The position numbers and the translations under genes were made by a program. From a bacterium (lineage in GTDB: Bacteria > Armatimonadota > Zipacnadia > Zipacnadales > UBA11051): 64,000 bases of DNA. Positions 35,385-58,590 of this stretch are shown piece by piece. The notes under the pieces were generated by a model. That model worked only from the letters and a program-made list of their open reading frames with translations, did no database searches and was not told the DNA's origin. How positions within the stretch are numbered: the first letter of the stretch is position 1; each line of letters starts with the position of its first letter. The stretch is taken from positions 34,927-98,926 of the forward strand of contig JAJFUB010000034.1 in assembly GCA_021372615.1 (NCBI GenBank). Reading direction: 5' to 3'.

Positions 35385-36938
35385 ATGCGCTACGACTTCA
35401 CCACCATGCGCCCCGGCGCCCTGCCCGCAGGCTTCAGCGGGGAGGGCTGGCAACTGGCGTCCGTCGCGCGCCACCCGCGCAACACGACCGCCATCAAGGC
35501 CGTGGACTCCCCCGACTACCATGTCGCCTTCCCCAGCATCTGCAAGGCGCAGAGCGGCGACCTGCTGGTCGTGTACCGCGAGGGCTTCACGCACGCGGTG
35601 AGTGAGGACCCGCACGACGGCAAAGTCGCCCTCATCCGCTCGACCGATGGCGGACGTACGTGGGGCGAGCGCGTCATCATCATGGACGGCGACGACTATG
35701 ACGACCGCAACGCCGCCATCGCCTGCGCGCTCCCCGCGTGCCAGCAGGATGCTGGCGCTCCTACGGCGCAGTTGCTCGTGTGCTGGGACAAGTGGAAGCC
35801 GAGCAAACACCGCGGGGCCTACGCCATGCTCAGCGACGACGAGGGGCACACGTGGAGCGCCCCGATCCGCCTGCAGCCCGTCGAGGATGTGCACACGCGG
35901 TCAGCGTCGCTCATGCTCAGCGACGGCCACTGGCTCATCCCGCTGGCCGAGGGTGAGGGCGACGGGCAGGCGGCATATGCCACGATCCTGGACCCGCGCA
36001 CGGGGCAGTCCGAGATGATCCCCATCACACCGGTGGGCGATCAGAACCTCGCCGACGAGGTCTGCGTCGCCCGCGCGGCGGACGGCTCGCTGGTGGCGCT
36101 GGGCCGTGCGGTGCGCGACCGGTACCTGTGGCAGACGCGCTCGCGCGACGAGGGACGCACGTGGGAGACGCCGTGGCTGTCGTCCATCCCCTCGCAGTAC
36201 ACGCCGGGCGATGTCATCGCCCTGGACAACGGTTGGCTGCTATGCAGCTTCTCGTTCCGCGAACGGCGCAATGAGCGGCTGGTGCTGTCCAAGGACCACG
36301 GGGAGACATGGGAGGTCGAGAACTCGATTGATGTCTTCGACGGCACCATGGCCGTGGGCGGCGACCGCTCGTATCCCGCGTCGGTACAGATTGACGCGGA
36401 CACGATCGGCACGGTGCTGTATGAGACGCAGGCCCATCCCGCGGGCGGGGCGATCTACTTCGTGACCAGCAAGCTCAGCGAGTTTGACCGCGCGCCGGTG
36501 ACGGCGCTCTACGCGCCGATGGAGGGGCCGGCTATCAGCCGGCCCGCCGTCACTGTCGCCCTCCCACCAGCCGCACAGGAGATCCGCTTCCGCTACCGCT
36601 TCACCGGCCGCTTCGGCGACGCCCCGAACCGGCTGGAGGTGAGCCTCGACGACCTCACTTTCGCCTACCAGATGGGCGCCACGCCCGACCGCAAGGGCGC
36701 GATCAACTACGTCCAGGCCAGCGGCCTGACGGCCAACGGCGAGGAGCACGAGGCGGTCGGCGATTGGTTCGACGACGGCAACGAGCACGAGCTGACCCTC
36801 CGCCGCGGCGCTGGCGGCTGGACGATGAGCCTCGACGGCCACGAGCAGATCACGGCCGCCGGGCCAGAGGCACCGGCGGCCGTGACGATTACGGCGGTGC
36901 GCGCGGGGATCGCCGTCTACGAGCTGGAGATCGCGTAG
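35385..36938 (+). CDS. BNR/Asp-box repeat exo-alpha-sialidase-like protein (GH33-like) with C-terminal lectin-like domain
   Basis: ATG 35385 follows AAGGAG. Four Asp-box motifs: STDGGRTW, SDDEGHTW, SRDEGRTW and SKDHGETW. The upstream extension to 34533 was rejected. Confidence 0.6.
   Translation: MRYDFTTMRPGALPAGFSGEGWQLASVARHPRNTTAIKAVDSPDYHVAFPSICKAQSGDLLVVYREGFTHAVSEDPHDGKVALIRSTDGGRTWGERVIIMDGDDYDDRNAAIACALPACQQDAGAPTAQLLVCWDKWKPSKHRGAYAMLSDDEGHTWSAPIRLQPVEDVHTRSASLMLSDGHWLIPLAEGEGDGQAAYATILDPRTGQSEMIPITPVGDQNLADEVCVARAADGSLVALGRAVRDRYLWQTRSRDEGRTWETPWLSSIPSQYTPGDVIALDNGWLLCSFSFRERRNERLVLSKDHGETWEVENSIDVFDGTMAVGGDRSYPASVQIDADTIGTVLYETQAHPAGGAIYFVTSKLSEFDRAPVTALYAPMEGPAISRPAVTVALPPAAQEIRFRYRFTGRFGDAPNRLEVSLDDLTFAYQMGATPDRKGAINYVQASGLTANGEEHEAVGDWFDDGNEHELTLRRGAGGWTMSLDGHEQITAAGPEAPAAVTITAVRAGIAVYELEIA
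36521..36550. repeat. Second copy of 30-nt palindromic repeat (ggaggggccggctatcagccggcccgccgt), here inside the sialidase-like CDS
   Basis: 29/30 identical to 8896-8925. Encodes MEGPAISRPAV in the CDS frame. Confidence 0.6.
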
Positions 36939-37765
36939 TCGTCGGGGTCCACGCCGACGGCGATATGCCCCAGGCAGTCGTACCAGTGGATGAAGGGGAC
37001 GCCATCCACGACGAGCCGTTGCGCGTCGGGCAGGTGCTCATCCCACGGCCCGCGATCGGCGTAGACCTTGTTACCATGCCCCCAGAGGCGGCCGTTGTAA
37101 CGCCGGCAGATGATGAGCCGCCCGTCGTCCGGGCGCACGAAGCACTCCATCAGCGCGTCCCGCTCGGTCGGCTGCGCCGGCACGTCAATGACATGCACGC
37201 ACTCGAACTTCCGCTCACCCACGGTCAGCTTCGCCATGCCCAGCACGCCTGCCCTGTCATCGGGGTCGTCCGGCGTGTGACGTTGGGCCAGCGCGCCGTC
37301 CGCCTGCCGGGCGAAGCGTCCCGTGTCGCGTAGTACGAGGGCGAAGCTGCCCCAGTCGTCATCGAAGCCCTCATCCAGGAAGGTGCGCAGCACACGCACG
37401 CCCCGTCGCCGGCGGTCGGTCCCCAGCCAGCGGCCCTGCTCGGCCGTTGCGGCGATGAAGGTCCACGACCGGCTGACTTGCCAGTCGCGTTCGTGGTCGT
37501 ACTCATCGTCCTGCAGCTCCAGGCCCTCGACGCCGTGCAGCTCGACCTTGCCGATCATGTGCACGTCCATCAGGTAGGTCAGCCGCCAGTCCGGCGGGTC
37601 GTACATCGTCCACATCGTGTGGTCACCGATCTGCAGCCGGCTGAACCCGTTGCGCACTTCCCGCCAGTGCAGCTCCGGCGCCGGCCGGTCGAGCGGCTCG
37701 ACCCGAAGGTCCGGCCGCAGCTCGGGGAACGGCTGCGGCTTCCCGCCAATCGTGAACAGACTCAT
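36917..37765 (-). CDS. Hypothetical protein (282 aa) translationally coupled downstream of ECF sigma factor; no recognisable anti-sigma features
   Basis: The sigma stop and this ATG are arranged as TGAGACATG. No TM helix and no HxxxCxxC zinc motif. The 3' end overlaps the convergent sialidase gene by 22 nt. Confidence 0.45.
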   Translation of the reverse strand: MSLFTIGGKPQPFPELRPDLRVEPLDRPAPELHWREVRNGFSRLQIGDHTMWTMYDPPDWRLTYLMDVHMIGKVELHGVEGLELQDDEYDHERDWQVSRSWTFIAATAEQGRWLGTDRRRRGVRVLRTFLDEGFDDDWGSFALVLRDTGRFARQADGALAQRHTPDDPDDRAGVLGMAKLTVGERKFECVHVIDVPAQPTERDALMECFVRPDDGRLIICRRYNGRLWGHGNKVYADRGPWDEHLPDAQRLVVDGVPFIHWYDCLGHIAVGVDPDDYAISSS

Positions 37766-37768
37766 GTC

Positions 37769-38314
37769 TCATGCCTCCTCGTCCAGCCCGAGCGTCCGCC
37801 GCATGTGTCGTCGCGCCTCGTGCAGTCGCCGCTTGACGGTGCCGGCAGGACACTGCAGTTGCCGCGCGATCTCGGCGATGGACCAGCCCTCGGCGTAGAA
37901 CAGCTCCGCGGCCTCGCGCAGCGGCGGGCGCACCTGCCGCAGCGCCTCCTGCGCCGCCTCGACCTGCTCGTCGGCGCGGCCCGCCGCGCGCCCGTAGCGA
38001 TTGGCGGCAACCTCCAGGTGCTCCGCGGCCAGTGGTACGGTGGCCCGTCCCTGCGCCTTCCAGCAGTCGCGGCAGCGGTTGCGCGCGATCTGCAGCAGCC
38101 AGGCTCGTACGCGCCCGGCCTCCTGCAGCTTGCCGATATCCCGCCAGGCGTGCAGCAGCGTCTCTTGCAGGAGATCCTCCACGTCCTCGGGCCGTTCGAG
38201 CAGCCGCCGCAGCAGGGCGACGACGGGCCGCCCGTGCCGCTGCATCAACTCCGCGAAGGCAGCGCCCTCGCCCCGCGCACTACGGCTCACCAGTTCGGCA
38301 TCATCCGGCTGCAT
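37769..38314 (-). CDS. ECF (sigma-70 family, group IV) RNA polymerase sigma factor
   Basis: Region 2 LLQETLLHAWRDIGKL and region 4 HTH ...EGWSIAEIARQLQCPAGTVKRRLHEARRHMR. 181 aa. ATG 38314. The upstream extension to 39019 was rejected as low complexity. Confidence 0.8.
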   Translation of the reverse strand: MQPDDAELVSRSARGEGAAFAELMQRHGRPVVALLRRLLERPEDVEDLLQETLLHAWRDIGKLQEAGRVRAWLLQIARNRCRDCWKAQGRATVPLAAEHLEVAANRYGRAAGRADEQVEAAQEALRQVRPPLREAAELFYAEGWSIAEIARQLQCPAGTVKRRLHEARRHMRRTLGLDEEA

Positions 38315-38391
38315 GGGCACGCTCTCGGGCTGTTGATGAGAGAGTGGAGAAGGCGGGGAGCAAAAGGTTCGGCGCCTACGCCGGGGAGCGA

Positions 38392-40284
38392 CTACGGCGC
38401 CGGGGTCACGGTCGTGGTCAACTCCCAGGCCGCCGCGGGGGCGGCGGTCCGCGCGACCACACAGGTATGCATGAAGTCCCAACCGTTGTCCTTCTTCCCC
38501 AGGCACACCGTGTTGTCGGGCAGCTTCTCCTGTGTGACCTGCAGCGGCACGGAGCTGCTCAGGCTCAGCTTCCCCTCCGGCCACGCAACCTCCCAGGTCG
38601 TGCCGTCTCCGGTGATGGCAGCCACCTCGGCAGTGCCCAGGTGCCAGCGGAAGCACGTGACCGCGGGCTGTGCCGGGCCCTGCACGGTGTCGGCGACGCG
38701 CAGAGCGGCGGCGTCCCACGTCACGTGCCGCTGCCAGCGCTGCAGGCCGGGGTAGCAGGCCGTAGGCTCCACGATGAGGTCCCCGCCCTCGGCCGTCAGG
38801 CGGCTGACCGCCATCGGCGCCACGGCCTTCCTGGGCTTTGCGTCCGCCACGTCGAGTACATTGTGCCCCACGACCGTTGAGTAGAGCGTGTGGATGGTTG
38901 GGTTGTCGTAGCCGGGCGTCCCCGCCTCGATGAGCAGGGGCTTGCCGCGGGCGATGAAGTTCACGTGTCCCCGGTCGTAGTGGTCGTGGCCGTCGAGCGG
39001 ATGCCCGCCCCGCACCCACAGCCCGGTTGCGTCGTCAGCCCAGCTATCGCGCCAGTTGACGCGCCGCGCCGGCCCGTTGTAGAACGCGAACAGCGGCGGG
39101 GCCTGCGGCGGGACCGTCGCGGTGCGGGCCAGCAGGCCGATCAGGTCATCGGTCGGGCCGTCGTAGAGCGTGTCCAGCGCCCAGCGCGCAGCCGAGCTGC
39201 CCGCGAACACCGTCAGCGTCCCCAGCAGCCCCCGGGCGCCGCCGTCGTTGCGCCCGGTCTTGGCGCCACCGGCGTCGAAGCAGTTGACCCGCAGCCGCCC
39301 CGGCTGCAGGTGGTGGACCGCCCACGTCGGGAAGCCGCGCAGGAAGGGGTGATCGAGCGCCCGCGTGTCGCCGTGGGCCGCCATGGCATGCGCCGCCGCC
39401 AGCATCGACCCAACCGTGAACATCGCGTAGCCGATCCCCTCGTTGAACTCCCCCTGCTGCCCCTGCACGTCCATCGCCCGCAGCAGGTTCGTCACGCCCA
39501 GTTCGTACTCAGCCGCGAACTGGTCCTTGCCCAGCAGGAGACAGGCGCGGATGAGGCCTTCGGTCGGCAGCACCCACTGGTTGGTCTGTGGGTGGCCATT
39601 GCCCGACCGGAACCACCCGCGGCGCAAGCGCCAGTCGTCGCCGATCGTCTTGATCTCCCCGCGCAGCAGGCCGTGCACCTGCGCGACCAGCTCCGGCGGC
39701 AGGCTTCCAGCCGGCATCAGCTCCAGCGTGTCCGCAATCCCCCGGATGCCCTGGCCCGTGGCCAGCCAACTGCCGTCCCAGTAGCCGGCCGGCACGGGAT
39801 CGGGCGCGGGTGTGCAGAGCTGCCAGCCAGGCCGTTGCAGCGGCGACCATGTCGCCGTCTCCGCCAGTTGGCTGATGATCCGCGCGCGGAAGACCTCCTC
39901 GCCGGTGCAGCGGTACGCCAGGGCGAGCAGGGGCAACTCATTGAGAACCGTGCCGGCAGCCGCGAAGTCCGACATCGCCAGCCCGAACACTCCCTGCCGG
40001 GGCTGGCGGTCCATGAACTTCGCCCGCCCATCCAGCCACGTGCGGTTCTGGCCGATGTCGGCATACCGGTACACGCGCTTGACGATGGGCGTGGCAGCGA
40101 TCTTGCGCGCCCGCTCGACGATGGTCTGCAGCGGCGCCGCCAGTTCCGGCCGCTGCCGGACGGCATCGGCCATCGCGCCCCAGTCGCGCGCCGGGGCGCT
40201 GACTTGCCCCGAGGCCGGCAGGGACGACAGCGCGACGACCGCGAGGAGTGCCAGCGACAGCAGGCCACAGGCTGGGACAGTCAT
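38392..40284 (-). CDS. Secreted heparinase II/III-like polysaccharide lyase family protein
   Basis: Signal peptide MTVPACGLLSLALLAVVALSSLPASG. The C-terminal region GHDHYDRGHVNFIARGKPLLIEAGTPGY matches the heparinase II/III-like domain. RBS GGAGG upstream. Confidence 0.55.
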   Translation of the reverse strand: MTVPACGLLSLALLAVVALSSLPASGQVSAPARDWGAMADAVRQRPELAAPLQTIVERARKIAATPIVKRVYRYADIGQNRTWLDGRAKFMDRQPRQGVFGLAMSDFAAAGTVLNELPLLALAYRCTGEEVFRARIISQLAETATWSPLQRPGWQLCTPAPDPVPAGYWDGSWLATGQGIRGIADTLELMPAGSLPPELVAQVHGLLRGEIKTIGDDWRLRRGWFRSGNGHPQTNQWVLPTEGLIRACLLLGKDQFAAEYELGVTNLLRAMDVQGQQGEFNEGIGYAMFTVGSMLAAAHAMAAHGDTRALDHPFLRGFPTWAVHHLQPGRLRVNCFDAGGAKTGRNDGGARGLLGTLTVFAGSSAARWALDTLYDGPTDDLIGLLARTATVPPQAPPLFAFYNGPARRVNWRDSWADDATGLWVRGGHPLDGHDHYDRGHVNFIARGKPLLIEAGTPGYDNPTIHTLYSTVVGHNVLDVADAKPRKAVAPMAVSRLTAEGGDLIVEPTACYPGLQRWQRHVTWDAAALRVADTVQGPAQPAVTCFRWHLGTAEVAAITGDGTTWEVAWPEGKLSLSSSVPLQVTQEKLPDNTVCLGKKDNGWDFMHTCVVARTAAPAAAWELTTTVTPAP

Positions 40285-40327
40285 GCGGAGCCTCCAGGGG
40301 CCAGACGCAACATGCGGGTGGTTGACG

Positions 40328-41443
40328 CTACAACCCCGCCTCCAGCCTCACACCCGCCCCCACGAAGCGTGGCGTGTTCACCTCTACCACCACATTGCCA
40401 CTCGACCCCACCACCAGGACTGTTTTCTCCGGCGCCGTGTAGTACAGCCCCGTGCCACGCGGCGTTCCCGCGCCGCGCAGGGCATTGCCGGTCACGACCA
40501 CCATGCCCGTGCCATGCGTCACCGACACCGCGAGGTAGCGATAGGTCGAGGCTGGCTGCTTCTCGCCGCCGAAGTTGAGGATGCGGTTGTGGGCGATGGT
40601 GGAAGCTGCGCCGCCCTGCACGATGGCCTCGATGCCGCACCACGCCCCCGCCTCGTCCGTCTCGCCGAACCCCTCGATGTAGTTGTCACAGATCGAGGTG
40701 CCGAAGAGCCGGTGGGCATAGATGGCCGTGTGCGGCACCCCGTAGATGTGGTTGCGCTCGACCACCCAGCCGGCGGCGTTGTCCATGTGGATGCCGTCGG
40801 CGCCCGAGCTGGCGATCCAGTTGTCGCTCAGGATCCAGTCGGTCACGGAGTTCCCCGGGTCCTCGATGAAGATACCGTGCCGCCCCGAGTTCTCGATGAA
40901 GTTGCCGGAGATGCGCCCGTTCACCTGCGAGTTCTTGAGCCCGACGCCCTTGGCGCTGCGGCTGGTAAGCCGCAAGCCGTCCCCGCCCATGCTCGTGATG
41001 CAGACGTCCTCAACCACGCTCAGCCACGAGCGCAGGACCAGGCCGGCGGTCTGAGCCCCCGGGTTGCCCTTGCGGTTGCCGTTCAGCGTCAGGTGCCGCA
41101 CGGCCACGGGTGTGCCGGTCCACGGCGCGTCATCCAGGTACCCCGCGGAGGCGACGAGCGCGCCAAGGTTCGCCCCGTCCGCCTGCTTGAGGACCGTGCC
41201 CGTACGGCTCTCACCGCGCAGCGACCGCTGCCCGAGCAGGCGGATGGTCTGGTTGACGAGGAACGCCCCGCGGAGCACGACTTCGCTGCCCTCCGGGCTG
41301 GCGGCGATGGCCGCGTTAATGGCGGCGGCATCGGCAGGCGTGCTCGTGCCCACGACGATGATCGGCTCGGCCGCCCGCACGGCCTCCGCCCCCGCACCCC
41401 ACAGGAGAAAGCCGATCAGCGCCAGCCCTCGCCATGTCATCAT
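40328..41443 (-). CDS. Secreted right-handed parallel beta-helix repeat protein (pectate-lyase/GH28-like fold)
   Basis: Signal peptide MMTWRGLALIGFLLWGAGAEA. Repeated NxxGxxI/V motifs (GNFIENSGRHGIFIED, DNWIASSGADGIHMDN, ERNHIYG). Confidence 0.5.
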   Translation of the reverse strand: MMTWRGLALIGFLLWGAGAEAVRAAEPIIVVGTSTPADAAAINAAIAASPEGSEVVLRGAFLVNQTIRLLGQRSLRGESRTGTVLKQADGANLGALVASAGYLDDAPWTGTPVAVRHLTLNGNRKGNPGAQTAGLVLRSWLSVVEDVCITSMGGDGLRLTSRSAKGVGLKNSQVNGRISGNFIENSGRHGIFIEDPGNSVTDWILSDNWIASSGADGIHMDNAAGWVVERNHIYGVPHTAIYAHRLFGTSICDNYIEGFGETDEAGAWCGIEAIVQGGAASTIAHNRILNFGGEKQPASTYRYLAVSVTHGTGMVVVTGNALRGAGTPRGTGLYYTAPEKTVLVVGSSGNVVVEVNTPRFVGAGVRLEAGL

Positions 41444-41616: not shown

Positions 41617-41649
41617 ACCCTCCTCATCCCCTCATCCCGCCATCCCGCC

Positions 41650-42648
41650 CTACCTCAGCCGCACCGGTCGCCCCTCTGCCGCCGAGCGGATGAGCGCGTG
41701 CGCCACTTCCAGCGAGGCGAGCACTTCCTCGTGCGTCGGCACCTCGACCGGCAGGCCATGCGTCACGCAGCGCACGAAGTAGCCGATCTCGTCGCGCAGA
41801 GCGCCGACGGTCGCGCCGTAGATCTCCGGCCAGTACGACGTGTCCGGCGTCGTCACCCGGTCCTCCAGCCAGAACCCCAGCCCGTTCCCCGGGACTTCCA
41901 GTAATGCCGTCCCCTTGGTCCCGATCACCTCGCCGAGGATGTGGCCCCGCCACGGGGTCGAGTCGGGCAGCAGCCAGGCCGTCTCCACCACGCCCACCGA
42001 GCCGTCGTCCATCGTGATGATCCCCCAGAACAGGTCATCGCCGAGCCCGCCGACATCGGCGGTGCGCATGTAGACCTCCACCGGCCGGCGGTCGCCGAAG
42101 TACCACAGGATCAGGTCAATGTCGTGGATGCCGGTGGTGTAGAGGAGATTGGACTTGGTGAACTTCGCGCGCATCGCGAGGCTCTGGTTGCGACGGCCGT
42201 AGACGCTGACGACCTTCCCCAGCTCGCCCCGGTCAATGCTCCCCTTGATGGCGGCGCAACGGGTGTCGAAGCGCAGGAGGTGGCCGACCATCATCCGCCG
42301 CCCCAGCTCCCGCGCGCGGGCCACCATCCGCCGCGCCTCGTCCATGTCGTGGCTGAGGGGCTTTTCGACGAAGACATCGCATCCGGCCTCCAGCGCGGCC
42401 ATCACGGGCGCGAAGTGCCGGTTGTCATCGGTGACGACATGGACCGCGTCCAGCTCCACGGCGGCCAACATCGCGTCCACGTCGGGGAAGACGTGCGGCA
42501 CGCCGTAGCGGTCGGCCAGCTCGCGGGCGCGGGCCTCGGTGCGCGACACGAGCGCCACGACCTCAGCGCCGTCGAGCCCGGACAGGACGTCCAGATGCCG
42601 GGCCCCGAAGTCCCCGGCGCCAATGACGGCGAAGCGTTTGCGTTGCAT
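41650..42648 (-). CDS. Gfo/Idh/MocA family oxidoreductase
   Basis: Rossmann FAVIGAGDFGARHL and FVEKP motif. RBS AGGAGG. Confidence 0.8.
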   Translation of the reverse strand: MQRKRFAVIGAGDFGARHLDVLSGLDGAEVVALVSRTEARARELADRYGVPHVFPDVDAMLAAVELDAVHVVTDDNRHFAPVMAALEAGCDVFVEKPLSHDMDEARRMVARARELGRRMMVGHLLRFDTRCAAIKGSIDRGELGKVVSVYGRRNQSLAMRAKFTKSNLLYTTGIHDIDLILWYFGDRRPVEVYMRTADVGGLGDDLFWGIITMDDGSVGVVETAWLLPDSTPWRGHILGEVIGTKGTALLEVPGNGLGFWLEDRVTTPDTSYWPEIYGATVGALRDEIGYFVRCVTHGLPVEVPTHEEVLASLEVAHALIRSAAEGRPVRLR

Positions 42649-43690: not shown

Positions 43691-43709
43691 GATGAGAGGC
43701 TCCATTGAG

Positions 43710-45954: not shown

Positions 45955-46223
45955 CACAGGTACTTCCCAACAAACTCATGCGCCTTGTTGTTCGCGAACA
46001 TGTGCTCTCCGGGATGGATGTCCACCCACAGGTCCTCCTCTACCCCCGCCGCCGCGTAGATCCTCTGGAGCGCCTCAAACCCCGCGAGCTGGTCCTCAAT
46101 GAAGAAGCAGGTGTCGTACACGCCCATCTCGATCAGCAGGGGCCGCGGGGCGATCAGCCCGGCGATGTCGTGCACATCGAAGTACTTGTAGATCTGGGGG
46201 ACTGTCGGGCGATGTGACGACAA
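45954..46223 (-). pseudogene. Relic C: 5'-truncated duplicate of esterase gene 3' end (89 codons, ~90% nt identity to 49334-49600)
   Basis: Translation ...VPQIYKYFDVHDIAGLIAPRPLLIEMGVYDTCFFIEDQLAGFEALQRIYAAAGVEEDLWVDIHPGEHMFANNKAHEFVGKYL is near-identical to the esterase C-terminus. Homology breaks at ~46200. Confidence 0.7.
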
Positions 46224-46310
46224 TAGTTGAGATCACCCCGGTGCGACTGCACCTACCGGCGAGATCCTGCAGCGGACACAGTAACCGCCACTAGCAGCAC
46301 GTCGGCTGCG

Positions 46311-49148: not shown

Positions 49149-49333
49149 GGTTCGCCTCCTGTGGTATGGGCCAGCCGCACTTCCGTGGCAGGGAAGCCCA
49201 ACCTGCCAACAAACAGAAGCCGACCCATCGGGCTCCGGCAAGTTGGGGCGGGGCGGAGGCGAATTCTACCGTGAGAATGGTCTCCCAATCCGTTGTCGCC
49301 AAAGGCCATTCCCGCAGGCCATAGCCGCCTCAC

Positions 49334-50371: not shown

Positions 50372-50412
50372 CTGCGGCACTCCCTTTCGCCTCGGGTTGG
50401 CAGTATGTCACA

Positions 50413-51516: not shown

Positions 51517-51566
51517 GGGGCGGGGCCTCCACAGGGATGGGAGCGCGGCTGCCAGCGGTCCCGGGG

Positions 51567-52673
51567 CTACCACTTCGCGGGCGCGTAGGCGACTTCGAGG
51601 CGGCTCGTGAGGCCGGGGCGCCCGCAGACATTCACGGGCCGGACCTCCAGCACGTTTTCCCCTTCGCGCAGCGGCCAGTCGAGCGTGGCGGGGCGCGTCT
51701 GCCACACGCCGCCATCCACGCGCGTCTCGAAGTGGTCGAACCACGGCATGCAGTGCTCCAGTGACACGGTCAGGTTCGGCCCGTCGGCCCAGGCAGCCTG
51801 CGCGGACAGGCGCACCATGTTCACCGTCCAGTACAGGTCATCGGGGTTGTCGGTCAGCACGCCCGTGCCGCCAGGGGCGAAGTGGCTGACGAAGCCGGGC
51901 AGGCAGCGCCGGTCGAGCCACGTCCAGCGCCCTACGGTCAGGCGCGCGTAGTAGTCGAGCGCGCGGTGGCGGACGAAGCGCCGGCACAGGTGTGCCGCCT
52001 CCTGCTCGCTGAAGTGGTCCATGTTCGGCATGAGCTTGCTGACCAGCCCGACGTGCTCGCCCACCGGGAGCGTGAACGGGGGCTCCTCCTGCACTACCGT
52101 CACCGCCTCGGCCTCGTGGGCCAGCCACGCCTCGTGTATCTCCAGCGCCGACAGGGGCACGCCGTCGCGCTCGTAGTGCAGGTTGAGGTCCGGGTCGAGG
52201 AGGACCCACTTGCGGTACTGGTTGGACCAGATCTCCGGCACGCTGTGGCCGACGTTGCCGACATTGTGCCCGCGCGGGAAGGCGCTGTCCCGCACACCGA
52301 TGCTCAGCGGCCGCGCCACCCAACCCAGCGCCCGGGCGCCTTCCACGAAGACCCGGCTATAGAAGCCGCAGTTGAAGTGCTCCCCGCGGTCGGCCTCATG
52401 CAGGATGTCCAGGGCATCCCGGACGGTGTTGAAGCATAGCGACCAGCCATGATCCCAGCGCGACCGCACCCACCGCTGTAGCGTGCGCTGGGCCTCAAAC
52501 TCAGTCGCGTAGCCGGCCACGACGTCGTCGAGGCCGTACTCCTCGCGCACCTGCATCGTGCGCGGGGCCAGCGGGTCGCCGTAGTCCATCTGCGTGAAGT
52601 CGCCGACGAAGGCCGGCAGGTCGCAGCGGATGATCTCGAAGTCGCCGGGGATGCCGTGCCTGTCTTCGCTCAT
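51567..52673 (-). CDS. Transglutaminase-like (Cys-His-Asp papain-like) domain protein
   Basis: RBS AAGGAG. Core motif GEHFNCGFYSRVFVEGARALGWVARPL (nucleophile Cys) followed by GHNVGNVGHSVPEIW...VLLDPD (His and Asp). Confidence 0.5.
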   Translation of the reverse strand: MSEDRHGIPGDFEIIRCDLPAFVGDFTQMDYGDPLAPRTMQVREEYGLDDVVAGYATEFEAQRTLQRWVRSRWDHGWSLCFNTVRDALDILHEADRGEHFNCGFYSRVFVEGARALGWVARPLSIGVRDSAFPRGHNVGNVGHSVPEIWSNQYRKWVLLDPDLNLHYERDGVPLSALEIHEAWLAHEAEAVTVVQEEPPFTLPVGEHVGLVSKLMPNMDHFSEQEAAHLCRRFVRHRALDYYARLTVGRWTWLDRRCLPGFVSHFAPGGTGVLTDNPDDLYWTVNMVRLSAQAAWADGPNLTVSLEHCMPWFDHFETRVDGGVWQTRPATLDWPLREGENVLEVRPVNVCGRPGLTSRLEVAYAPAKW

Positions 52674-52701
52674 CGGTCGCTCCTTCCGGGGGCGTCGGGC
52701 C

Positions 52702-53652
52702 TCAGTACGCGTTCAGCCGGTCGGCCTCGGCGTGCAACTCCGCCATGCTGCAGGGGGTCAACGCCAGCCCCAGCTTCTCCGCCAGGGCATACGCGACCTC
52801 GATGGTCGTCTCGACGGCCCGGCGGCGGCCGCTGGCGCGGTCACCCACGTCCCAGGTGTTGTGGGTCGGGTGGTGCAGGAGCAGCACCGGGTGATCGCGC
52901 CGGATCTGGTCCCGCACGCTGGCTTCGCAGATCGCCATGGTGTCAGCGAAGCTCAGCTCGTTCTCGGCCCGGCAGTCCCGTACGGTCCAGGTGTCCGGCT
53001 GCGAGGCGGGGAGGGGCTCCAGACCCCGCGTCAGGGTGAACTCGTACAGGTCCAGGTCGCCGGGGACCAGGCGCGACTTGCTGCTGGCGTGGTGGGGATG
53101 GGGGAAGGCGCCGTGCCACAGGTGGCCCACTTCCGGGTGGGGGTTCCAGCGCCCCGGCGCCGAGCAGTAGCTCTGCCGGAAGCCCAGCTCGGCCAGGATC
53201 GGGAAGGTGTAGTCATTGGCCTGGGCGCAGCACGCCCCGAAGCTGTCGGCGGCCAGGCCCAAGGCTTGCTCCCAGTCGTCCCTGGCGATGGTGAGGACCT
53301 CCCGCTGCTCGTCGTAGTCGTACCAGGTCAGCGGCCGCTGCCAGTCGTAGTCCTCCGTCGCGCCCGGCGGGCGATAGCCGCGCACCTGGAAGTGCAGGGC
53401 CTGCCAACAGCCATGCGCGGCCATTTCGCGGAACAGGTCCGGCTGCCGCCGGGCCACCTCCGGCTCCGAGCAAAAGCCCAGGCAGCGCTGCAGACCACGC
53501 TCGGCGAACAGCTCATGGAGCCCCCGCACGGCCAGCTCGGCGACCTCCCACGTCTGGTCCCGCCCTCCGCCGGGCTTCTGGGGCGTCTGGCAGTCCATGA
53601 AGTAGATGAAGAAGAGCTGCGAGCGGTTCTTCTCGGTCAGCTGGGGCTTCAT
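52702..53652 (-). CDS. Hypothetical protein, paralogue B of 56383-57264 (TxDxET motif; possibly polysaccharide deacetylase/ArnD-like CE4 superfamily)
   Basis: ATG 53652 follows AGGAGG. N-terminus LFFIYFMDCQTPQ parallels LFVTWTMDCETIQ of paralogue A. A His-containing segment ALHFQ lies downstream. The assignment to the deacetylase fold rests on weak motif resemblance to ArnD (RIDVDT...GLHAWDHH). Confidence 0.35.
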   Translation of the reverse strand: MKPQLTEKNRSQLFFIYFMDCQTPQKPGGGRDQTWEVAELAVRGLHELFAERGLQRCLGFCSEPEVARRQPDLFREMAAHGCWQALHFQVRGYRPPGATEDYDWQRPLTWYDYDEQREVLTIARDDWEQALGLAADSFGACCAQANDYTFPILAELGFRQSYCSAPGRWNPHPEVGHLWHGAFPHPHHASSKSRLVPGDLDLYEFTLTRGLEPLPASQPDTWTVRDCRAENELSFADTMAICEASVRDQIRRDHPVLLLHHPTHNTWDVGDRASGRRRAVETTIEVAYALAEKLGLALTPCSMAELHAEADRLNAY

Positions 53653-53698
53653 GGCTCGCCTCCTCGTGCAGGCCGGCAGGATGCCGGCGCTCCTACGG

Positions 53699-55078
53699 CT
53701 ACAGCGGCCAGCGCCACGACAGGCGGCGCAAGATGCGGCTCGAGACGGCATGCAGCACATCGCGCGTGCGGTAGCGGTCGTCGGGCCGGACGTGTCCGTA
53801 GCAAGCCCAGCCCAGCGCCACCAACCCCGCCGCCAGCGCGAACAGGACCGCATGGGTGTCCACCGTCACCCAGCCCAACGACACGCGCCAGTCGCCCCAC
53901 GCCTGTAGCAGCGCCCCGGCCAGCAGCGGCGCCATCCCGCCCACCAGCCCGATCCAGGCGTAGTAGAGTGCCGTGTAGGCGGTGTTCTTGTGGGGCGGGA
54001 CGACGTCATTGTACAGCAGGCGGCCCGCTCCCAGCGCAGCCCCGTTGAAGGCCATGCCATGCGCCAGATACAGCAGGCCGCACCACATCACCAGGTGCGG
54101 CGCCTGGCGCGGCATCAGCAGCCAGCCCACGGGGATGAGGAGGGTCAGCGCGGCCCCGGTCATCAGCACCGGACGGCTGCCCACGCGGTCGGCCGCGTAG
54201 CCCCACAGCAGCGCCGCGAGCGCCCCGCCGACCATGACCAGCGACTCTAGCGTCACCACGACCCCCGGGGCCAGCCCCAGCGCCTGCTTGACGAACAGGG
54301 GCAGGAACGACAGGTACAGAAGTGTCCCGACCGTGATGCAACCGATCCCCGCCAGATAGACCACGAAGTTGCGATCCCGCAGCGCCTGGCGCATGTTCGC
54401 CAGGTGTCCCGCGCCGGGCGCCTCCTGCGACTGTGGCTGCCCGCCCTGCACCGGGATCACGGCGGCCACGCCCACCAGGCCGAACACGACGCCGACAGCG
54501 ATCAGGAGCAGGAAACGGTCCAGCCCCTCGCCCCCCTTGATGACTTGCCCGGCCGCCGCCAGCGTGAGGCACGTGGCCAGCGTGATCATCAGCGTGGACA
54601 TCGCGCCGAAGCGGCCCCGGACACGATCGGGGACCACCTCCTGCATCCATGGGTACCAGGCCGACTCCGCCAGCGAGCGCAGGGCGGCGAACAGGGCTAC
54701 GACCACGATGAGGTGCACCAGGCCCCCGGCATGGCCAAAGCGGTGCATCACCCAGGGCAGCAGCAGCAGCCCGGCGACGGCGAGCTTGCGTGCCGTCCAG
54801 CACGCCAGGAACACCCGCCGCCGCCCCAGGCGCGTGGCGATGGGGGCGGCCCACAGGGCCAGCACGCCCGCAAAGGGCAACAGCGAGAGCAGCAGGCCGA
54901 TCTGCGCCTTGGGCAGCCCCAACTCGTCGAGGAACAGCAGGAAGACCGGGCCGAACACGGTCAGGTACGCGAAGACCGCATTCAGCGCGTTCTGCGTCAC
55001 CAGCCAGGGAAGACCCCTGAGCTGCACGTCCTCGGGTAGCTCACACACGCCCTCAGGCAGCGGCTCGGCGCGCCCCAT
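53699..55078 (-). CDS. MFS transporter (12 TM)
   Basis: Hydrophobic 12-helix pattern with MFS signature-like loop GRLGRRRVF between TM2 and TM3. ATG 55078 is preferred over GTG 55084. Confidence 0.7.
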   Translation of the reverse strand: MGRAEPLPEGVCELPEDVQLRGLPWLVTQNALNAVFAYLTVFGPVFLLFLDELGLPKAQIGLLLSLLPFAGVLALWAAPIATRLGRRRVFLACWTARKLAVAGLLLLPWVMHRFGHAGGLVHLIVVVALFAALRSLAESAWYPWMQEVVPDRVRGRFGAMSTLMITLATCLTLAAAGQVIKGGEGLDRFLLLIAVGVVFGLVGVAAVIPVQGGQPQSQEAPGAGHLANMRQALRDRNFVVYLAGIGCITVGTLLYLSFLPLFVKQALGLAPGVVVTLESLVMVGGALAALLWGYAADRVGSRPVLMTGAALTLLIPVGWLLMPRQAPHLVMWCGLLYLAHGMAFNGAALGAGRLLYNDVVPPHKNTAYTALYYAWIGLVGGMAPLLAGALLQAWGDWRVSLGWVTVDTHAVLFALAAGLVALGWACYGHVRPDDRYRTRDVLHAVSSRILRRLSWRWPL

Positions 55079-55099
55079 CGTCACAGCCCTTCCATCCGG

Positions 55100-56380
55100 C
55101 TACGGCTTGTCCGCGAGGTCGTCGAGCCGTTCCATCACCTTGCGCATGGCGGCGGCGACCTCGGTCAGGGACTCGCGCGTCACATCAATGAAGCCCGGCA
55201 GCGAGATCAGGCGCCGGTTAAGACTCTCGGCCACGGGCAGCGTGGGCCGGGCCGGCGGTTCCGGGCGCGTCGGGTCGTAGAAGCAACCGCCCAGCTCCCG
55301 CCGGTCCACAGTCGTAAACAGCGGCGCGGCGTGCAGCAGCCCGTACGTGAAGTTCAGGTCGGAGTAGCGGTCGGCGGTGACGGGTGCGCCCTCGGCCTGC
55401 ATGGCGCCGACGATGCGCTCGCGTTCGACCCTCTGCACGGCCCCGGGGGTCAGCTTGAACTTGTACTCCAGGTAGCCCCCGCGCGTGGCCCCGGGCAGCG
55501 CCTCAATGACCTCCAGCCCCGGGCAGTCACGCAGCTGGTCATTCAGGTATTCCACGTTCGCCGTGCGCCTCTCGTTCAGTTCCGGCAGGCGCTGCAGGCC
55601 CACCCGCGCCATGGCGATGGCCCATGGATGGGGCCGGTACTTCGCCCCCAGGCTCATGTCGCCGATGGCGTTGACGACCTCCACCGCGCCCTGCCGCGGA
55701 CGCCCGAAGTGGCCCAGCAACACCATGCGGTCCAGGAGCGCCGGATCGTCGGTCACGGCGACTCCCGACTCGCCGCCGCTGACCGCCTTGGAGCCCTGCA
55801 TGGAGAAGCAACCGATCTGCCCGAAGCTGCCCACGGGCTGGCCTCGCCACAGCGCCCCATGGGCGTGGCTGGCGTCCTCGATCAGGGCCAGATGGTGCCG
55901 CCGGGCGATGTCGCACAGGCGGTCCATGTCGCAGACATTGCCGAACACATGCACGACGCACAGGGCCTTCGTGCGCTCCGTGACGCGGCGCTCGACGTCG
56001 TCGGGGTCAATCGTCAGCGACTCGGGGCGGATGTCGCAGAAAACCGGCGTGGCGGCGCAATGGATGATCGGTGTCGCGCTGGCGTGCCAGGTGTAGGCGG
56101 GGACAAGCACCTCGTCCCCCGGCCTCACGCCGACCGCGAAGTACGCGCTGTGCAGTGTTGCCGTGCCGCTGTTCATCGCCAGGGCGTAGCGACTGCCGGT
56201 CATCGCGGCGAAGTCTGCCTCGAACTCGCCGATCACGCCCCGAGGGCCGCCGATGGAGATGACGCCCTGGTCCATCAGGGCGTTGACCGCGGCCTTGACC
56301 TCGTCGTTGACCTGCACCCACTGCTCGCGCGGTGGGGTGGTGACGGCCTTCGGGCCACCGAGCAGAGCCAGAGCACTCAT
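55100..56380 (-). CDS. DegT/DnrJ/EryC1/StrS family PLP-dependent aminotransferase (ArnB-like sugar aminotransferase)
   Basis: Family motifs including SGTATLHSAY, ...DEVLVPAYTW... and the PLP-lysine region FSMQGSKAVSGGESG. Starts 2 nt after the paralogue A stop. Confidence 0.8.
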   Translation of the reverse strand: MSALALLGGPKAVTTPPREQWVQVNDEVKAAVNALMDQGVISIGGPRGVIGEFEADFAAMTGSRYALAMNSGTATLHSAYFAVGVRPGDEVLVPAYTWHASATPIIHCAATPVFCDIRPESLTIDPDDVERRVTERTKALCVVHVFGNVCDMDRLCDIARRHHLALIEDASHAHGALWRGQPVGSFGQIGCFSMQGSKAVSGGESGVAVTDDPALLDRMVLLGHFGRPRQGAVEVVNAIGDMSLGAKYRPHPWAIAMARVGLQRLPELNERRTANVEYLNDQLRDCPGLEVIEALPGATRGGYLEYKFKLTPGAVQRVERERIVGAMQAEGAPVTADRYSDLNFTYGLLHAAPLFTTVDRRELGGCFYDPTRPEPPARPTLPVAESLNRRLISLPGFIDVTRESLTEVAAAMRKVMERLDDLADKP

Positions 56381-56382
56381 GG

Positions 56383-57264
56383 CTACACCTCACAGCTCGC
56401 GGCGGCGCGGACCTCCGCCAGCGTCGCCGGCGTCAGCTCCAGGCCGCACTCCTCCGCCGTCGCCGTGATGGCCTCGGCGATCAGCTCGAGGTTGCGGCGG
56501 TACGGGTCAGTGGGATCATCGTAGCAGCGCGTATTGTGGGTCATCACGACTACGGACTTGAGCCACCAGTCGTGCTCCACCTGCCGGCGCACGACCTCGC
56601 GGATGAGCCCGGGCCCCCAGTCGGCGAGGCCGTCGCGCTCCAGGCGCAGATGGCGCGGGTCGCAGGGGGCCTCGCGATGCGGGCCGATGTCGTCGGGCGC
56701 TGCGGCGGTGGGCAGTTCCAGGAAGCGCCGCCCGGCGCCCCCCGGTCGCCAGTGGGCGAAGGGCACGTCGTTGACCCACACCGCGCCGACGGCCGGGCTG
56801 TTGCGTCCCGGCAACGTGACACTGCCCTGCGTGAAGCCGAGGTCGGTCAGGAGCGGGAAGGTCTCCCAGGTGGCCGAGAAGCAGCCGGAGCGGTAGCTGG
56901 TCGGGGCCTGCCCGGTGACCGCCGCCACGCGGTCGCGGCCCTGTTGCAGCAGTTCCCGCTGCCTCTGGGGCGGCAGGTGCCCCAGGTGGCGGTCGCAGCC
57001 GAGGTCGGTGGTCTGGGGGTGCATGTGCAGCCCCAGGTCGGCCCCGGCTGCGCCCAGTTCGCAGACGACTCCCGGCAGGCCCTCGGCCAGCCGCGGAATG
57101 AGGAACAGCGTGGTCCGGTGCCCGCGCGCAACCAGGCTCTCCACGTAGCCGCGCATGGCCCGCTCCGCCAGCTCCCAGGTCGCCGGGCCGCCGGTGACCG
57201 GCGACTCCTCCTGGATCGTCTCGCAGTCCATCGTCCACGTGACGAACAGTCGCGCCGCGCTCAC
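56383..57264 (-). CDS. Hypothetical protein, paralogue A (TxDxET motif; possibly deacetylase/ArnD-like)
   Basis: GTG start 57264 is preceded by GAAGGAG. Sequence LFVTWTMDCETIQ...ADLGLHMHPQ. Lies between the two DegT genes. Confidence 0.35.
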   Translation of the reverse strand: MSAARLFVTWTMDCETIQEESPVTGGPATWELAERAMRGYVESLVARGHRTTLFLIPRLAEGLPGVVCELGAAGADLGLHMHPQTTDLGCDRHLGHLPPQRQRELLQQGRDRVAAVTGQAPTSYRSGCFSATWETFPLLTDLGFTQGSVTLPGRNSPAVGAVWVNDVPFAHWRPGGAGRRFLELPTAAAPDDIGPHREAPCDPRHLRLERDGLADWGPGLIREVVRRQVEHDWWLKSVVVMTHNTRCYDDPTDPYRRNLELIAEAITATAEECGLELTPATLAEVRAAASCEV

Positions 57265-57279
57265 CGTGTGCTCCTTCGC

Positions 57280-58590
57280 CTACCGGCCCAACGTCGTGGC
57301 CCGCTCGAGCTTCTGGTCGCTCGTCATGCCTTGGAGCTGGTCAAGGTTCGTCAGCACCTTGACGTACGCCGCGGCGAGCTGGTCCAGGTACGCCTCGTCA
57401 TAGCGGATCATCCGCGGCACGTGGATCAGGCGCGTGACGATCTGCTCGGCCACGGGACAGTCGCCGGGGCCCTGTCGCACGTCGCGCGAGAAGGCAATGC
57501 GCGTGGGCTTGCCGTCGCCGTAGACGTCGCACTCGTTCCAGAAGGGATGCAGGTGGTGGCAGAAGTAGCCGCCGGGGCTGGCGGACGCGCCTTCGGCCCG
57601 GATGGCCTCGGCGATGACCGCCACCGGCGCCTGGCTGATGATCTCATCCCCCAGGATCAGCATCTGCCAGTACGAGGCGCCGACCGTCACGTTCGGGTCG
57701 TGCAGCGGGTAGTTGCAGTCCACGCCGGGCACGGCGCACACCTGCGAAAAGAACCGCTCCATAGCCTTGACGCCGGGGGCGCGGTACTCGTCGTAGTGGC
57801 GCAACTGCACCCGCGCCATGGCCGAGGTCATCTGGTGCATCCGGTACTTGTAGCCGCCCCACGGCAGCGGCGCGAAGCGCTTGTACTCGGGGTTCTGCAC
57901 GAACGAGTGGTGGTCGCCATGGCCAAACATGACAGCCCGCTCGTAGATGTCCTGGTCGTTGGTGTTCATCATGCCGCCCTCGCCGGTGGCCAGGGGCTTG
58001 CCGGACATGATCGAGGCCGCGCCGACATGGCCGATGGAGCCGACCTTGCGGCCCTTCCAGGTGCTCGCGTGCGAGTGCGAGTAGTCCTCGAGGATCTTCA
58101 CGCCCCGGCGGGCGGCGATGTCCATGAAGGCATCCATGTTGGCGGCATAGCCGCCCATCTGCACGACGATGATGGCCTTGGTGCGGTCGGTGATGCGCCG
58201 CTCGGCATCGGCCGGATCGGGGCAGAGGCTGTGGGGGTCGAGGTCGCAGAAGACCGGCGTGGCGCCCAGGTTCAGCAGTTGGGTGTGCGTCGCCCAGAAG
58301 GTCCACGTTGGGGTGATGACCTCATCGCCCCGGCCGATGCCGAGGCCGTACATGGCGCAGTGAATGGCCGAGGTGCCGTTGTTGCAGGCCAGGGCATACT
58401 GGCTGCCCTCCCAGGCCGCGTACTCCTTCTCCAGTTCGAGCGTGACATCCGTGCCCGACATGCTCCGGGCGTGCAGGACCTCCAGGATCGCCCGCTCGTC
58501 TTCCGCGGTCACGATCGGCCAGGTGCTCAGGTCCGGGCATTCCAGAGTGACCGTTTTGGGACCGCCGTTGATTGCCAACTTGCTGCTCAT
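57280..58590 (-). CDS. DegT/DnrJ/EryC1/StrS family PLP-dependent aminotransferase (second copy)
   Basis: ATG 58590 follows AAGGAG. Translation MSSKLAINGGPKTV...YALACNNGTSAIHCAMYGLGIGRGDEVITPTWTF...IMSGKPLATGEGGMM. The upstream extension to 58860 was rejected. Confidence 0.8.
   Translation of the reverse strand: MSSKLAINGGPKTVTLECPDLSTWPIVTAEDERAILEVLHARSMSGTDVTLELEKEYAAWEGSQYALACNNGTSAIHCAMYGLGIGRGDEVITPTWTFWATHTQLLNLGATPVFCDLDPHSLCPDPADAERRITDRTKAIIVVQMGGYAANMDAFMDIAARRGVKILEDYSHSHASTWKGRKVGSIGHVGAASIMSGKPLATGEGGMMNTNDQDIYERAVMFGHGDHHSFVQNPEYKRFAPLPWGGYKYRMHQMTSAMARVQLRHYDEYRAPGVKAMERFFSQVCAVPGVDCNYPLHDPNVTVGASYWQMLILGDEIISQAPVAVIAEAIRAEGASASPGGYFCHHLHPFWNECDVYGDGKPTRIAFSRDVRQGPGDCPVAEQIVTRLIHVPRMIRYDEAYLDQLAAAYVKVLTNLDQLQGMTSDQKLERATTLGR

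Follow-up and report, generated by a model that had tools for sequence, protein, structure and literature searches.

What are two DegT-family aminotransferases doing among genes for the processing of glycans? The question is raised by a gene array at positions 36917-58590 of a 64-kb stretch of DNA (the window) from the assembly of an uncultured Armatimonadota bacterium (GCA_021372615.1, contig JAJFUB010000034.1), with best hits in the class Armatimonadia. Here, two such genes, DegT-A and DegT-B, enclose parA, a gene for a protein resembling the deacetylases of carbohydrate esterase family 4 (CE4), and further along lie a paralogue of the latter, parB, and tgl, encoding a protein with a transglutaminase fold (Table 1). 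We see an even chance that the region is a mosaic glycan-utilisation locus whose function is the cytoplasmic de-N-acylation, transamination and reduction of imported amino sugars. The array suggests an undescribed breakdown route for N-acylated amino sugars, with a conserved core that we describe as a cytoplasmic "amide hydrolase plus aminotransferase" module, i.e. DegT-A, parA and DegT-B together with parB and tgl.

Since raw lists of open reading frames (ORFs) are full of spurious frames at the window's G+C content of ~69%, genes were called by filtering on G+C at third codon positions (GC3) and by inspecting ribosome-binding sites (RBS). An earlier interpretation made from the DNA letters only (the sequence-only reading) had counted twenty genes, all on the minus strand. 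All GC3-passing coding sequence in the interval is indeed on that strand, and the number is corrected to 16 genes and one 92-codon fragment. The gene order and family labels of that reading agree with Pfam throughout. Using RBS-supported starts (e.g. AAGGAG upstream of the DegT-A ATG at 58590), the gaps across the first eight genes are 15, 2, 15, 46, 28, 50 and ~32 nucleotides (nt), which bears out both the 2-50 nt given for the upstream half and the 2 nt between parA and DegT-B, while 43-206 nt separate the genes further downstream. The window commonly has long runs of genes on one strand (in the first 18 kb, all GC3-supported ORFs but one are on the plus strand), so that co-directionality alone is weak evidence of one operon; the tight spacing of the upstream block is better evidence. 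A scan for promoter and terminator consensus sites found them no commoner than in shuffled sequence and gave no information on where operons begin or end in a genome of such high G+C content. Neither an Rfam scan nor a tRNA scan had a match in the window, so no recognisable riboswitch precedes the block.

Within the array, the GHL10 gene lies between the two copies of a 268-nt direct repeat (45943-46210 and 49323-49590, 88% identity). The downstream copy contains an ORF (45954-46232) that encodes the last 82 residues of the esterase (267-348) at 93% amino-acid identity, and its stop codon overlaps the start codon of the LVIVD gene (GTGA). The GHL10 region is also the sole stretch of lower G+C, 0.63-0.64 as compared with ~0.70 elsewhere. 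GHL10 is probably a later insertion between the esterase and LVIVD genes, and the simplest account is that these two genes were formerly translationally coupled; from the overlap of stop and start codons it follows that LVIVD was probably part of the ancestral block. As a whole, the array is a mosaic and not a conserved unit, and the recurrent part is a core of three to five genes only.

Which part of the array is conserved was assessed in related loci (labeled with L-numbers), comprising 65 genome loci and 79 metagenome loci with parA relatives, plus loci from exact look-ups, all scored by tblastn with the window proteins as queries. Across 118 related loci the whole array was not conserved. 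What recurs is a CE4-like gene with a DegT gene, in some cases joined by parB and a tgl-like gene, and by a gene for a Gfo/Idh/MocA oxidoreductase, an iron-containing alcohol dehydrogenase (Fe-ADH) or a short-chain dehydrogenase/reductase (SDR). The pairing of aminotransferase and CE4-like protein that the sequence-only reading had singled out is a real, recurrent association. On a public metagenome contig of 4890 nt (MTKZ01039577.1, L077), SDR, DegT-A, parA and DegT-B are found in the arrangement of the window at 95-99% protein identity, and this near-identity implies that the same or a sister population was sampled elsewhere. Among non-redundant loci having enough flank, eight of the nine close relatives (at least 70% identity) have a DegT gene within 5 kb of the CE4-like gene. 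DegT-A orthologues (72-99% identity) precede parA in L005, L009, L077 and L081. The DegT following parA is of the B type in the window, L007 and L077, and of a different type of ~386-400 amino acids (aa), 29-33% identical to DegT-B, in L004, L005, L008, L009, L078, L079 and L082. Because a non-orthologous DegT follows parA in many close relatives, the parA-DegT adjacency has been kept despite replacement of the partner. Combinations of core genes also recur at 30-40% identity in loci attributed to Planctomycetota, Latescibacterota and Oscillospiraceae and in unassigned metagenome contigs. The orders found include DegT, CE4, DegT (L132, 36% identity), tgl, CE4, Gfo, DegT (L123, 33% identity), CE4, Gfo, Gfo, DegT (L042), and CE4 with DegT and Gfo downstream (L062, L067 and L143).

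By employing 106 non-redundant loci with less than 70% identity, we determined the density of both partner families in distance bins out to 10 kb from the CE4-like gene. In successive bins, DegT genes occurred at 5.0, 2.2, 1.5, 1.0 and 0 per 100 kb and Gfo genes at 4.2, 2.2, 0, 0 and 0.7, both being ~8-14-fold denser within 1.5 kb than at 5-10 kb. This distance decay is an internal control for a real enrichment of DegT and Gfo genes beside the CE4-like gene. A Pfam census of 105 same-strand neighbors of the CE4-like gene in distant loci was headed by Gfo/Idh/MocA (9), sulfatase/SGSH_C (6), ABC transporter proteins (5) and DegT (4), and no glycosyltransferase family was among the 25 families listed, each with at least two members.

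The flanks of the module in close relatives contain Fe-ADH, AAT (an Ntn hydrolase), ceramidase-like, BNR_2, GH2, GH28-like and GH123_N-like proteins. DegT-B orthologues (57-88% identity) were found in Armatimonadota, Hydrogenedentota and Brocadiia, and their neighbors are e.g. sulfatase/SGSH_C and ceramidase-like proteins (L072), an Abhydrolase_7 esterase 40% identical to that of the window with AraC, AP_endonuc_2 and DUF6807 (L073), DUF6259, GH2 and GH42M (L074), and Gfo, an aldo-keto reductase (AKR), heparinase-like and URO-D-like proteins (L075). Oxidoreductases (Fe-ADH, Gfo, AKR, SDR) and amide hydrolases (AAT/Ntn, ceramidase-like) adjoin either the module or DegT-B orthologues, and in L014, L088 and L133 the CE4-like gene has an SDR homologue nearby. 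A catabolic rather than biosynthetic context, as previously proposed, is supported both here and in the neighborhoods of the relatives. The GH123_N-like proteins flank the module in L004, L005 and L009, and were considered as orthologous partners of the GH123-like protein of the window. This was rejected, as the latter had no tblastn match in these three loci (E 1e-6, at least 25% query coverage), and the recurrence is at family level only.

An Fe-ADH-superfamily gene is situated directly beside parA and DegT in L004 (11056-13453) and L007 (2876-5563), in the latter with parA on one side and DegT-B on the other. The window lacks it and has a divergent SDR gene instead, as if one oxidoreductase partner had been exchanged for a non-orthologous one.

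The family of parA needed more than a single-sequence search. Its PF01522 score of 20.5 bits is a weak match, below the cut-off of 23.1, though most parA homologues carry a precomputed PF01522 assignment; searched alone against the PDB, parA matched only 3RXZ (E 0.0026). A profile built from 20 family members, on the other hand, matches CE4 esterase and deacetylase chains at 2e-8 to 1e-3, placing H80 on the first His of the CE4 HxxxH motif and R125 on the motif-3 Arg. The AlphaFold model of parA (predicted local distance difference test, pLDDT, 95.9) has the distorted (beta/alpha) barrel of CE4. The profile matches, the alignment of H80 and R125 and the confident model together settle the superfamily, and by fold and profile parA is predicted to be a CE4 member; the question raised earlier, i.e. 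whether these proteins have a CE4-like or an unrelated fold, is answered in favor of the former. D13 and C14 are invariant in the family, and E15, H80, H82, R125 and H243 nearly so. If the D-x-D motif on the first strand of HP0310 and ArnD is their analogue, D13 and E15 would serve as catalytic and metal-binding acids. The spacing of the motifs differs from canonical CE4, in which an Asp-His-His metal triad and a catalytic Asp/His are found in the motifs TFDDG, HxxxH, RPPY and LxH. In the "long" subgroup of CE4/NodB proteins (Mycobacterium smegmatis 3RXZ, Helicobacter pylori HP0310/PgdA and the allantoinase PuuE) the motifs read TFDDG, HxxxH and RPPY, while those of the parA family read TMDCE, HxHPQ and FRxG. 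The family is rare, as 1.84 billion representatives yielded 140 clusters at E<1e-30 (352 at E<1e-10), and it is almost confined to metagenome-assembled genomes, which belong to Armatimonadota, Chloroflexota, Latescibacterota, Planctomycetota, Hydrogenedentota, Thermoprotei and Bathyarchaeia. The listed database homologues all lack a functionally specific annotation, and parA is outside ArnD and any characterised CE4 family.

The sequence-only reading had described parA and parB as two paralogous proteins with a TxDxET motif, each paired with an aminotransferase. Their paralogy is clear (32% identity, E 8e-27), but the motif is present in parA only (TMDCET), as parB reads FMDCQT. Nor is there a duplicated pair: parA is flanked by both DegTs, and parB, in which three polar residues conserved in the family are lost, is linked to tgl. 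The substitutions E15Q, H82Q, R125G, G127C and Y248V are common to seven parB orthologues of 65-81% identity (including those in L004, L005, L008, L009 and L010; the L009 copy is truncated at the Y248 column), and more distant members of the CE4-like family retain the parA-type residues at these positions. Two putative metal-binding or catalytic residues have thereby become isosteric amides and the motif-3 Arg is gone, which points to a pseudoenzyme or a different chemistry. CE4 pseudoenzymes are known, and parB resembles e.g. BA3943, itself among the fold matches, in having conserved polar residues replaced.

The gene adjoining or close to parB is tgl, and not a DegT gene, in the window, L004, L008, L010, L079 and L086. 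The tgl protein scores 29.9 bits with PF01841 (cut-off 23), and its C102, H143 and D160 are invariant in 20 homologues and in the orthologues from related loci. Its AlphaFold2 model (pLDDT 86) has a transglutaminase core and a beta-sandwich, with Foldseek matches to animal transglutaminases and to 3ISR, a putative bacterial Cys protease. We regard it as a putative Cys-His-Asp amidase or acyl-transferase, of which parB may be a pseudoenzyme partner. A PNGase-like function was considered and dropped, as the top 50 Foldseek matches are generic transglutaminase-core proteins without specific PNGase similarity. PADLOC defence models gave zero matches with parA, parB, tgl, the LVIVD protein and the 282-aa protein of the array.

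On another contig, of 8.08 Mb (L156), a tgl homologue of 50% identity has six S-methyl_trans (PF02574) genes around it, of which the locus contains five in full, with four Gfo/Idh/MocA genes (two with GH109_C), AAT, Beta_elim_lyase, PALP and an M14 peptidase also in its neighborhood. URO-D/MtaA-like genes are repeated in the genome of the window (a second one is at 17246-18394) and recur near DegT-B orthologues (L075). These observations are hints that alkyl-transfer steps, perhaps demethylation, are linked to DegT/CE4-like modules.

The two DegTs are 34% identical to each other and score 240.5 (DegT-A) and 272.5 bits (DegT-B) with PF01041, far above the cut-off of 19.8. K198, D169 and S193 (DegT-A numbering) are invariant across DegT-A, DegT-B, E. 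coli ArnB and the C-type DegT of L005, and Lys198 aligns with the Schiff-base Lys188 of ArnB. None of the NCBIfam equivalogs for PseC, ArnB, WecE, LegC, DesI and RfbH was reached, with best scores of 157-183 bits against cut-offs of 375-650. In the PDB, DegT-A is most similar to Fic25 (8GYH, full-length, 8.6e-46), followed by the DegT-family aminotransferase 7L7X and perosamine synthases, with 2-deoxy-scyllo-inosose aminotransferases lower, and DegT-B to Fic25 and then the 2-deoxy-scyllo-inosose aminotransferases. Full-length alignments that include the extended C-terminal region were obtained only with Fic25 and, for DegT-B, with 5W70, a 2-deoxy-scyllo-inosose aminotransferase. Fic25 is an aminotransferase of the ficellomycin pathway and gives no clue to the substrate. 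The enzymes matched at full length use non-nucleotide substrates, which may be taken as a weak hint against NDP-sugar substrates.

Taken together, the recurring parts are amide hydrolases, DegTs and an oxidoreductase, and a sequence of de-N-acylation, transamination and reduction is proposed because this chemistry uses all three. By hydropathy scan, signal peptides are absent from both DegTs, parA, parB, tgl, the URO-D-like protein, the esterase, the kinase of the aminoglycoside phosphotransferase (APH) family and Gfo, while signal-like N-termini are found in the heparinase-like, beta-helix, LVIVD, GHL10 and GH123-like proteins. The latter are candidates for freeing N-acylated amino-sugar units from an external glycan, and the freed units would be taken up by the MFS transporter. 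In the cytoplasm, parA would strip one N-acyl group and tgl, possibly with the catalytically altered parB, may strip another. The two DegTs would then pass the freed amino group or groups to a 2-oxo acid, leaving a keto sugar that an NAD(P)-dependent oxidoreductase (SDR or Gfo/Idh/MocA here, Fe-ADH in relatives) could reduce for entry into central metabolism, and the APH-like kinase may phosphorylate it. Amino-sugar catabolism as known so far concerns C2 amines and proceeds via NagA/NagB and AgaS type enzymes, the NagB/AgaS-type deaminase-isomerases handling 2-amino sugars only. A succession of deacylase, transaminase and reductase would be the obvious catabolic route for amines at other positions.

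Several observations weigh against this proposal. At 45-70% identity a DegT gene lies within 5 kb in only three of 16 loci, and below 45% in 13 of 68, so the association is facultative, and DegT-B orthologues of 77-84% identity occur without any CE4-like neighbor. In relatives, the module is not accompanied by the MFS, URO-D-like, esterase, kinase and ECF genes, and no MFS gene lies beside it in any related locus scored; the Gfo gene of the window is 13 kb away from the DegTs. Motifs 1 (TMDCE) and 2 (HxHPQ) of parA are unlike those of canonical CE4 enzymes, and hydrolase activity is therefore not assured. All characterised DegT-family enzymes that surfaced here are biosynthetic, and in L072, alone among the four sampled neighborhoods, the DegT-B orthologue is 5 kb from a polysaccharide-synthesis cluster on the opposite strand. 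Lastly, we infer the catabolic direction from the neighbors only, and the step order and every substrate are likewise inferred.

A narrower version of the proposal, which we find rather improbable in this specific form, is that the core serves specifically to break down the N-acylated diamino sugars of microbial glycans, by way of both DegTs, parA and the parB-tgl pair. Here, tgl (with the metal-site-deficient parB) and parA would strip the N-acyl groups, the two DegTs would remove the two amino groups, and the oxidoreductase would reduce the keto product. The substrate might be a bacillosamine-type 2,4-diacetamido sugar, a 2,3-diacetamido uronic acid or a 5,7-diacetamido nonulosonic acid. No description of a catabolic DegT or of a DegT/CE4-like gene combination was found in the literature searched, of which the coverage was partial.

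The same enzymes could instead work in the direction of synthesis, with the DegTs, the deacetylase-like protein, the oxidoreductase, the APH kinase and an MFS exporter making and exporting an amino sugar, diamino sugar or aminocyclitol-type small molecule, or modifying an envelope glycan, much as in aminoglycoside/aminocyclitol clusters or the Arn-type modification of lipid A. Such a reading would agree with the biosynthetic roles of all characterised relatives, with the lead of Fic25 in the PDB matches of both DegTs and the rank of the 2-deoxy-scyllo-inosose aminotransferases behind it (next for DegT-B, lower for DegT-A), with inositol 2-dehydrogenase as the second-best NCBIfam match of Gfo, and with the Fe-ADH-superfamily gene beside parA and DegT in L004 and L007; APH-type kinases and MFS exporters are, moreover, typical of aminoglycoside clusters. 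We nevertheless consider it unlikely, as neither in the array nor elsewhere in the 64-kb window did Pfam identify a glycosyltransferase, a nucleotide-sugar enzyme, a sugar-phosphate cyclase, a nucleotidyltransferase or an NDP-sugar dehydratase/epimerase (the absence of the first two from the array had already been reported), the census lacks glycosyltransferases among its listed families, the neighbors in relatives are GH2, GH28-like, GH123-like, BNR_2, sulfatase and heparinase-like proteins and amidases, and conservation of the module does not extend to the kinase, MFS and Gfo genes. The aminocyclitol variant, in which two DegTs, Gfo and APH would mirror the chemistry of StsC, StrI and StsE, was retained as a minor rival only, there being no cyclase or glycosyltransferase and no co-variation of the kinase and Gfo genes.

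A more sceptical explanation does without any shared pathway: independent carbohydrate genes, in a genome rich in them, would be co-directional by chance, and the DegT/CE4-like adjacency would result from local shuffling in one Armatimonadia lineage. The normality of same-strand runs in the window, the unconserved array, the demonstrable insertion of GHL10, the downstream gaps of 43-206 nt and the majority of CE4-like family members without a DegT neighbor all fit this. What makes it doubtful, to about the same degree as a biosynthetic role, is the spacing of the first eight genes (2 nt between parA and DegT-B, 15-50 nt otherwise), the persistence of the adjacency through replacement by a non-orthologous DegT, the recurrence of the gene combinations at 30-40% identity in unassigned metagenome contigs and in loci attributed to Planctomycetota, Latescibacterota and Oscillospiraceae, and the clear fall in DegT and Gfo density as one moves away from the CE4-like gene. 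Amination might also take place within catabolism. Keto sugars would then be formed from imported sugars or glycosides by Gfo, SDR or Fe-ADH, in the manner of the oxidative 3-keto glycoside-cleavage routes, the DegTs would aminate these intermediates, either salvaging them as amino sugars or trapping reactive keto compounds, and the CE4-like protein would act on a different ester or amide substituent. Gfo/Idh/MocA is the commonest neighbor of the CE4-like gene and often directly beside DegT, glycoside and disaccharide 3-dehydrogenase families are among the weak NCBIfam matches of Gfo, and transamination is freely reversible by established pyridoxal 5'-phosphate (PLP) chemistry. This explanation, however, leaves the recurrent linkage to amide hydrolases (CE4-like, transglutaminase-fold, AAT, ceramidase-like) without a reason, and the array lacks AP_endonuc_2 and DUF1080, which act as lyase/hydrolase partners in the 3-keto route; we rate it as the least probable of those discussed.

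The de-N-acylation and transamination proposed here had been likened to ArnB and ArnD, and the relation to ArnD holds at the level of the fold only. ArnD of the E. coli arnBCADTEF locus shares its fold with the parA family but has no detectable sequence relation to it (hhalign probability 0.9%, E 0.062, 25 columns), and the identification of parA as ArnD is ruled out by this profile comparison. ArnD was also absent from the phmmer and hmmsearch PDB matches of parA and the family profile. The ArnA, ArnC and ArnT partners present in the E. coli locus have no counterpart in the 64-kb window, nor was any other Arn gene found. The long-form DegTs (426-436 aa) reach 148-173 bits against the ArnB equivalog cut-off of 631. 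Finally, the Arn pathway is biosynthetic, acting on UDP- and undecaprenyl-linked sugars with a membrane-associated ArnD, whereas the window proteins are soluble and lie among glycan-degrading genes. The analogy is chemical, not evolutionary.

With the 2-deoxy-scyllo-inosose aminotransferases (BtrR/NeoB-type) and Fic25, the window DegTs share an intact catalytic Lys, although the matches are distant (E 1e-36 to 1e-53). Those enzymes belong to antibiotic clusters with cyclases and glycosyltransferases, both absent in the window, and no Pfam family for the hallmarks of aminoglycoside or aminocyclitol clusters (2-deoxy-scyllo-inosose or inositol-phosphate synthase, glycosyltransferases) was found in the array or window. 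In layout, the array resembles loci outside Bacteroidota that are similar to polysaccharide utilisation loci (PULs), which likewise combine secreted glycan-active proteins, a transporter, cytoplasmic sugar enzymes and an ECF sigma factor on one strand. In contrast to a Bacteroidota PUL with its SusC/SusD pair, the window has no TonB-dependent receptor or SusD family protein, and the cytoplasmic part of the array differs from that of PULs in using DegTs and the CE4-like/transglutaminase-like set.

The features of the array and of its divergent side are collected in Table 1.

Table 1. Features of the array, in order from its upstream end, and of the adjoining divergent region (window coordinates).
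Feature	Position	Strand	Description and evidence
DegT-A	57280..58590	-	Long-form 436-aa DegT/DnrJ/EryC1/StrS PLP aminotransferase, first gene of tight block; PF01041 4.3e-71
parA	56383..57264	-	293-aa CE4-superfamily deacetylase-like protein of the rare "TMDCE" family, putative de-N-acylase; weak PF01522 4.8e-4, below gathering score
DegT-B	55100..56380	-	Long-form 426-aa DegT aminotransferase, 2 nt after parA; PF01041 7.7e-81
MFS transporter	53699..55084	-	PF07690 (MFS_1) 5.4e-30; 11 hydrophobic segments (about 11-12 transmembrane)
parB	52702..53652	-	316-aa divergent parA paralogue, altered active site; no Pfam match
tgl	51567..52673	-	368-aa transglutaminase-fold Cys-His-Asp protein with C-terminal beta-sandwich, putative amidase/acyl-transferase; PF01841 (Transglut_core) 7.3e-7
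URO-D / MtaA-CmuA-like, 367 aa	50413..51516	-	PF01208 4e-16; TIGR01463 1.2e-13, far below its cut-off
Cytoplasmic alpha/beta-hydrolase esterase, Abhydrolase_7/glucuronoyl-esterase-like	49334..50380	-	PF12715 6.3e-14, PF22244 1.6e-7; no signal peptide
Secreted GHL10 protein	46413..49148	-	PF02638 3e-20; signal-like N-terminal segment
Esterase fragment (pseudogene remnant)	45954..46232	-	Duplicated esterase 3' end
Secreted LVIVD-repeat beta-propeller	43804..45957	-	PF08309 5.5e-30; signal-like segment near residue 40
APH-family small-molecule kinase	42728..43705	-	PF01636 6e-30; NCBIfam sub-threshold only, best homoserine kinase
Gfo/Idh/MocA NAD(P) oxidoreductase	41650..42648	-	PF01408 3.6e-30
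Secreted right-handed beta-helix protein	40328..41443	-	PF12708 3e-9, PF13229 5e-9; signal-like N-terminus
Secreted heparinase II/III-like protein	38392..40284	-	PF07940 (Hepar_II_III_C) 1.8e-12; signal-like N-terminus
Extracytoplasmic function (ECF) sigma factor	37769..38314	-	Sigma70_r2 1.3e-17, Sigma70_r4_2 4.8e-13
282-aa protein	36917..37765	-	No Pfam match; RBS GAGGAGG; 3 nt downstream of ECF sigma gene
SDR, candidate keto-sugar reductase	58829..59593	+	Divergent from DegT-A; adh_short_C2 4.6e-65
Inverted repeat, perfect 10 nt: TTGTCCGGCG, 19 nt, CGCCGGACAA	58713..58751	.	DegT-A/SDR divergent intergenic region
Secreted GH123-like protein, 928 aa	59681..62467	+	GH123_cat 3.2e-16; signal-like N-terminus

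No curated NCBIfam equivalog cut-off was reached by the DegTs, Gfo, the kinase, the URO-D-like protein, the MFS protein or the esterase. The best matches of Gfo, both below cut-off, were UDP-GlcNAc 3-dehydrogenase (7e-42) and inositol 2-dehydrogenase (2e-36), and the MFS protein had weak subfamily matches only. In the intergenic region between DegT-A and the SDR gene, the inverted repeat is a possible operator, and a sigma-70-like promoter match for the SDR gene is found at 58760-58788. At the other end of the array, the 282-aa protein is soluble, with no transmembrane segment and no obvious zinc anti-sigma motif, and could be an unconventional anti-sigma factor or the first target of the ECF sigma factor. 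The 3' end of its gene overlaps a convergent BNR_2 gene (ending at 36938) by 22 nt. Further genes in the window encode GH95, GH127, DUF4838 and BNR_2 proteins. Four Gfo/Idh/MocA genes are present within the 64 kb (5588-6763, 8977-10083, 31506-32705 and 41650-42648), and the genome appears heavily invested in oxidative or otherwise unusual sugar processing.

Rare bacterial amino sugars, e.g. di-N-acetylated hexoses, nonulosonic acids and 3- or 4-amino sugars, are abundant in cell envelopes, and very little is known of their natural recycling. If the array is biosynthetic or its genes are unrelated, the finding shrinks to an ordinary neighborhood of carbohydrate genes. The locus and its relatives offer a testable set of enzymes, in which two soluble DegTs are joined by the CE4-like protein of 293 aa and by a protein of transglutaminase fold that has a pseudo-CE4 partner. 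Should the diamino-sugar route be true, it would be the first catabolic case found in the DegT family and the first function for the rare TMDCE branch of CE4. More generally, if amino sugars are broken down in this manner, a DegT gene in the genomes of glycan degraders such as Armatimonadota, Hydrogenedentota and Planctomycetota would not automatically signify glycan biosynthesis.

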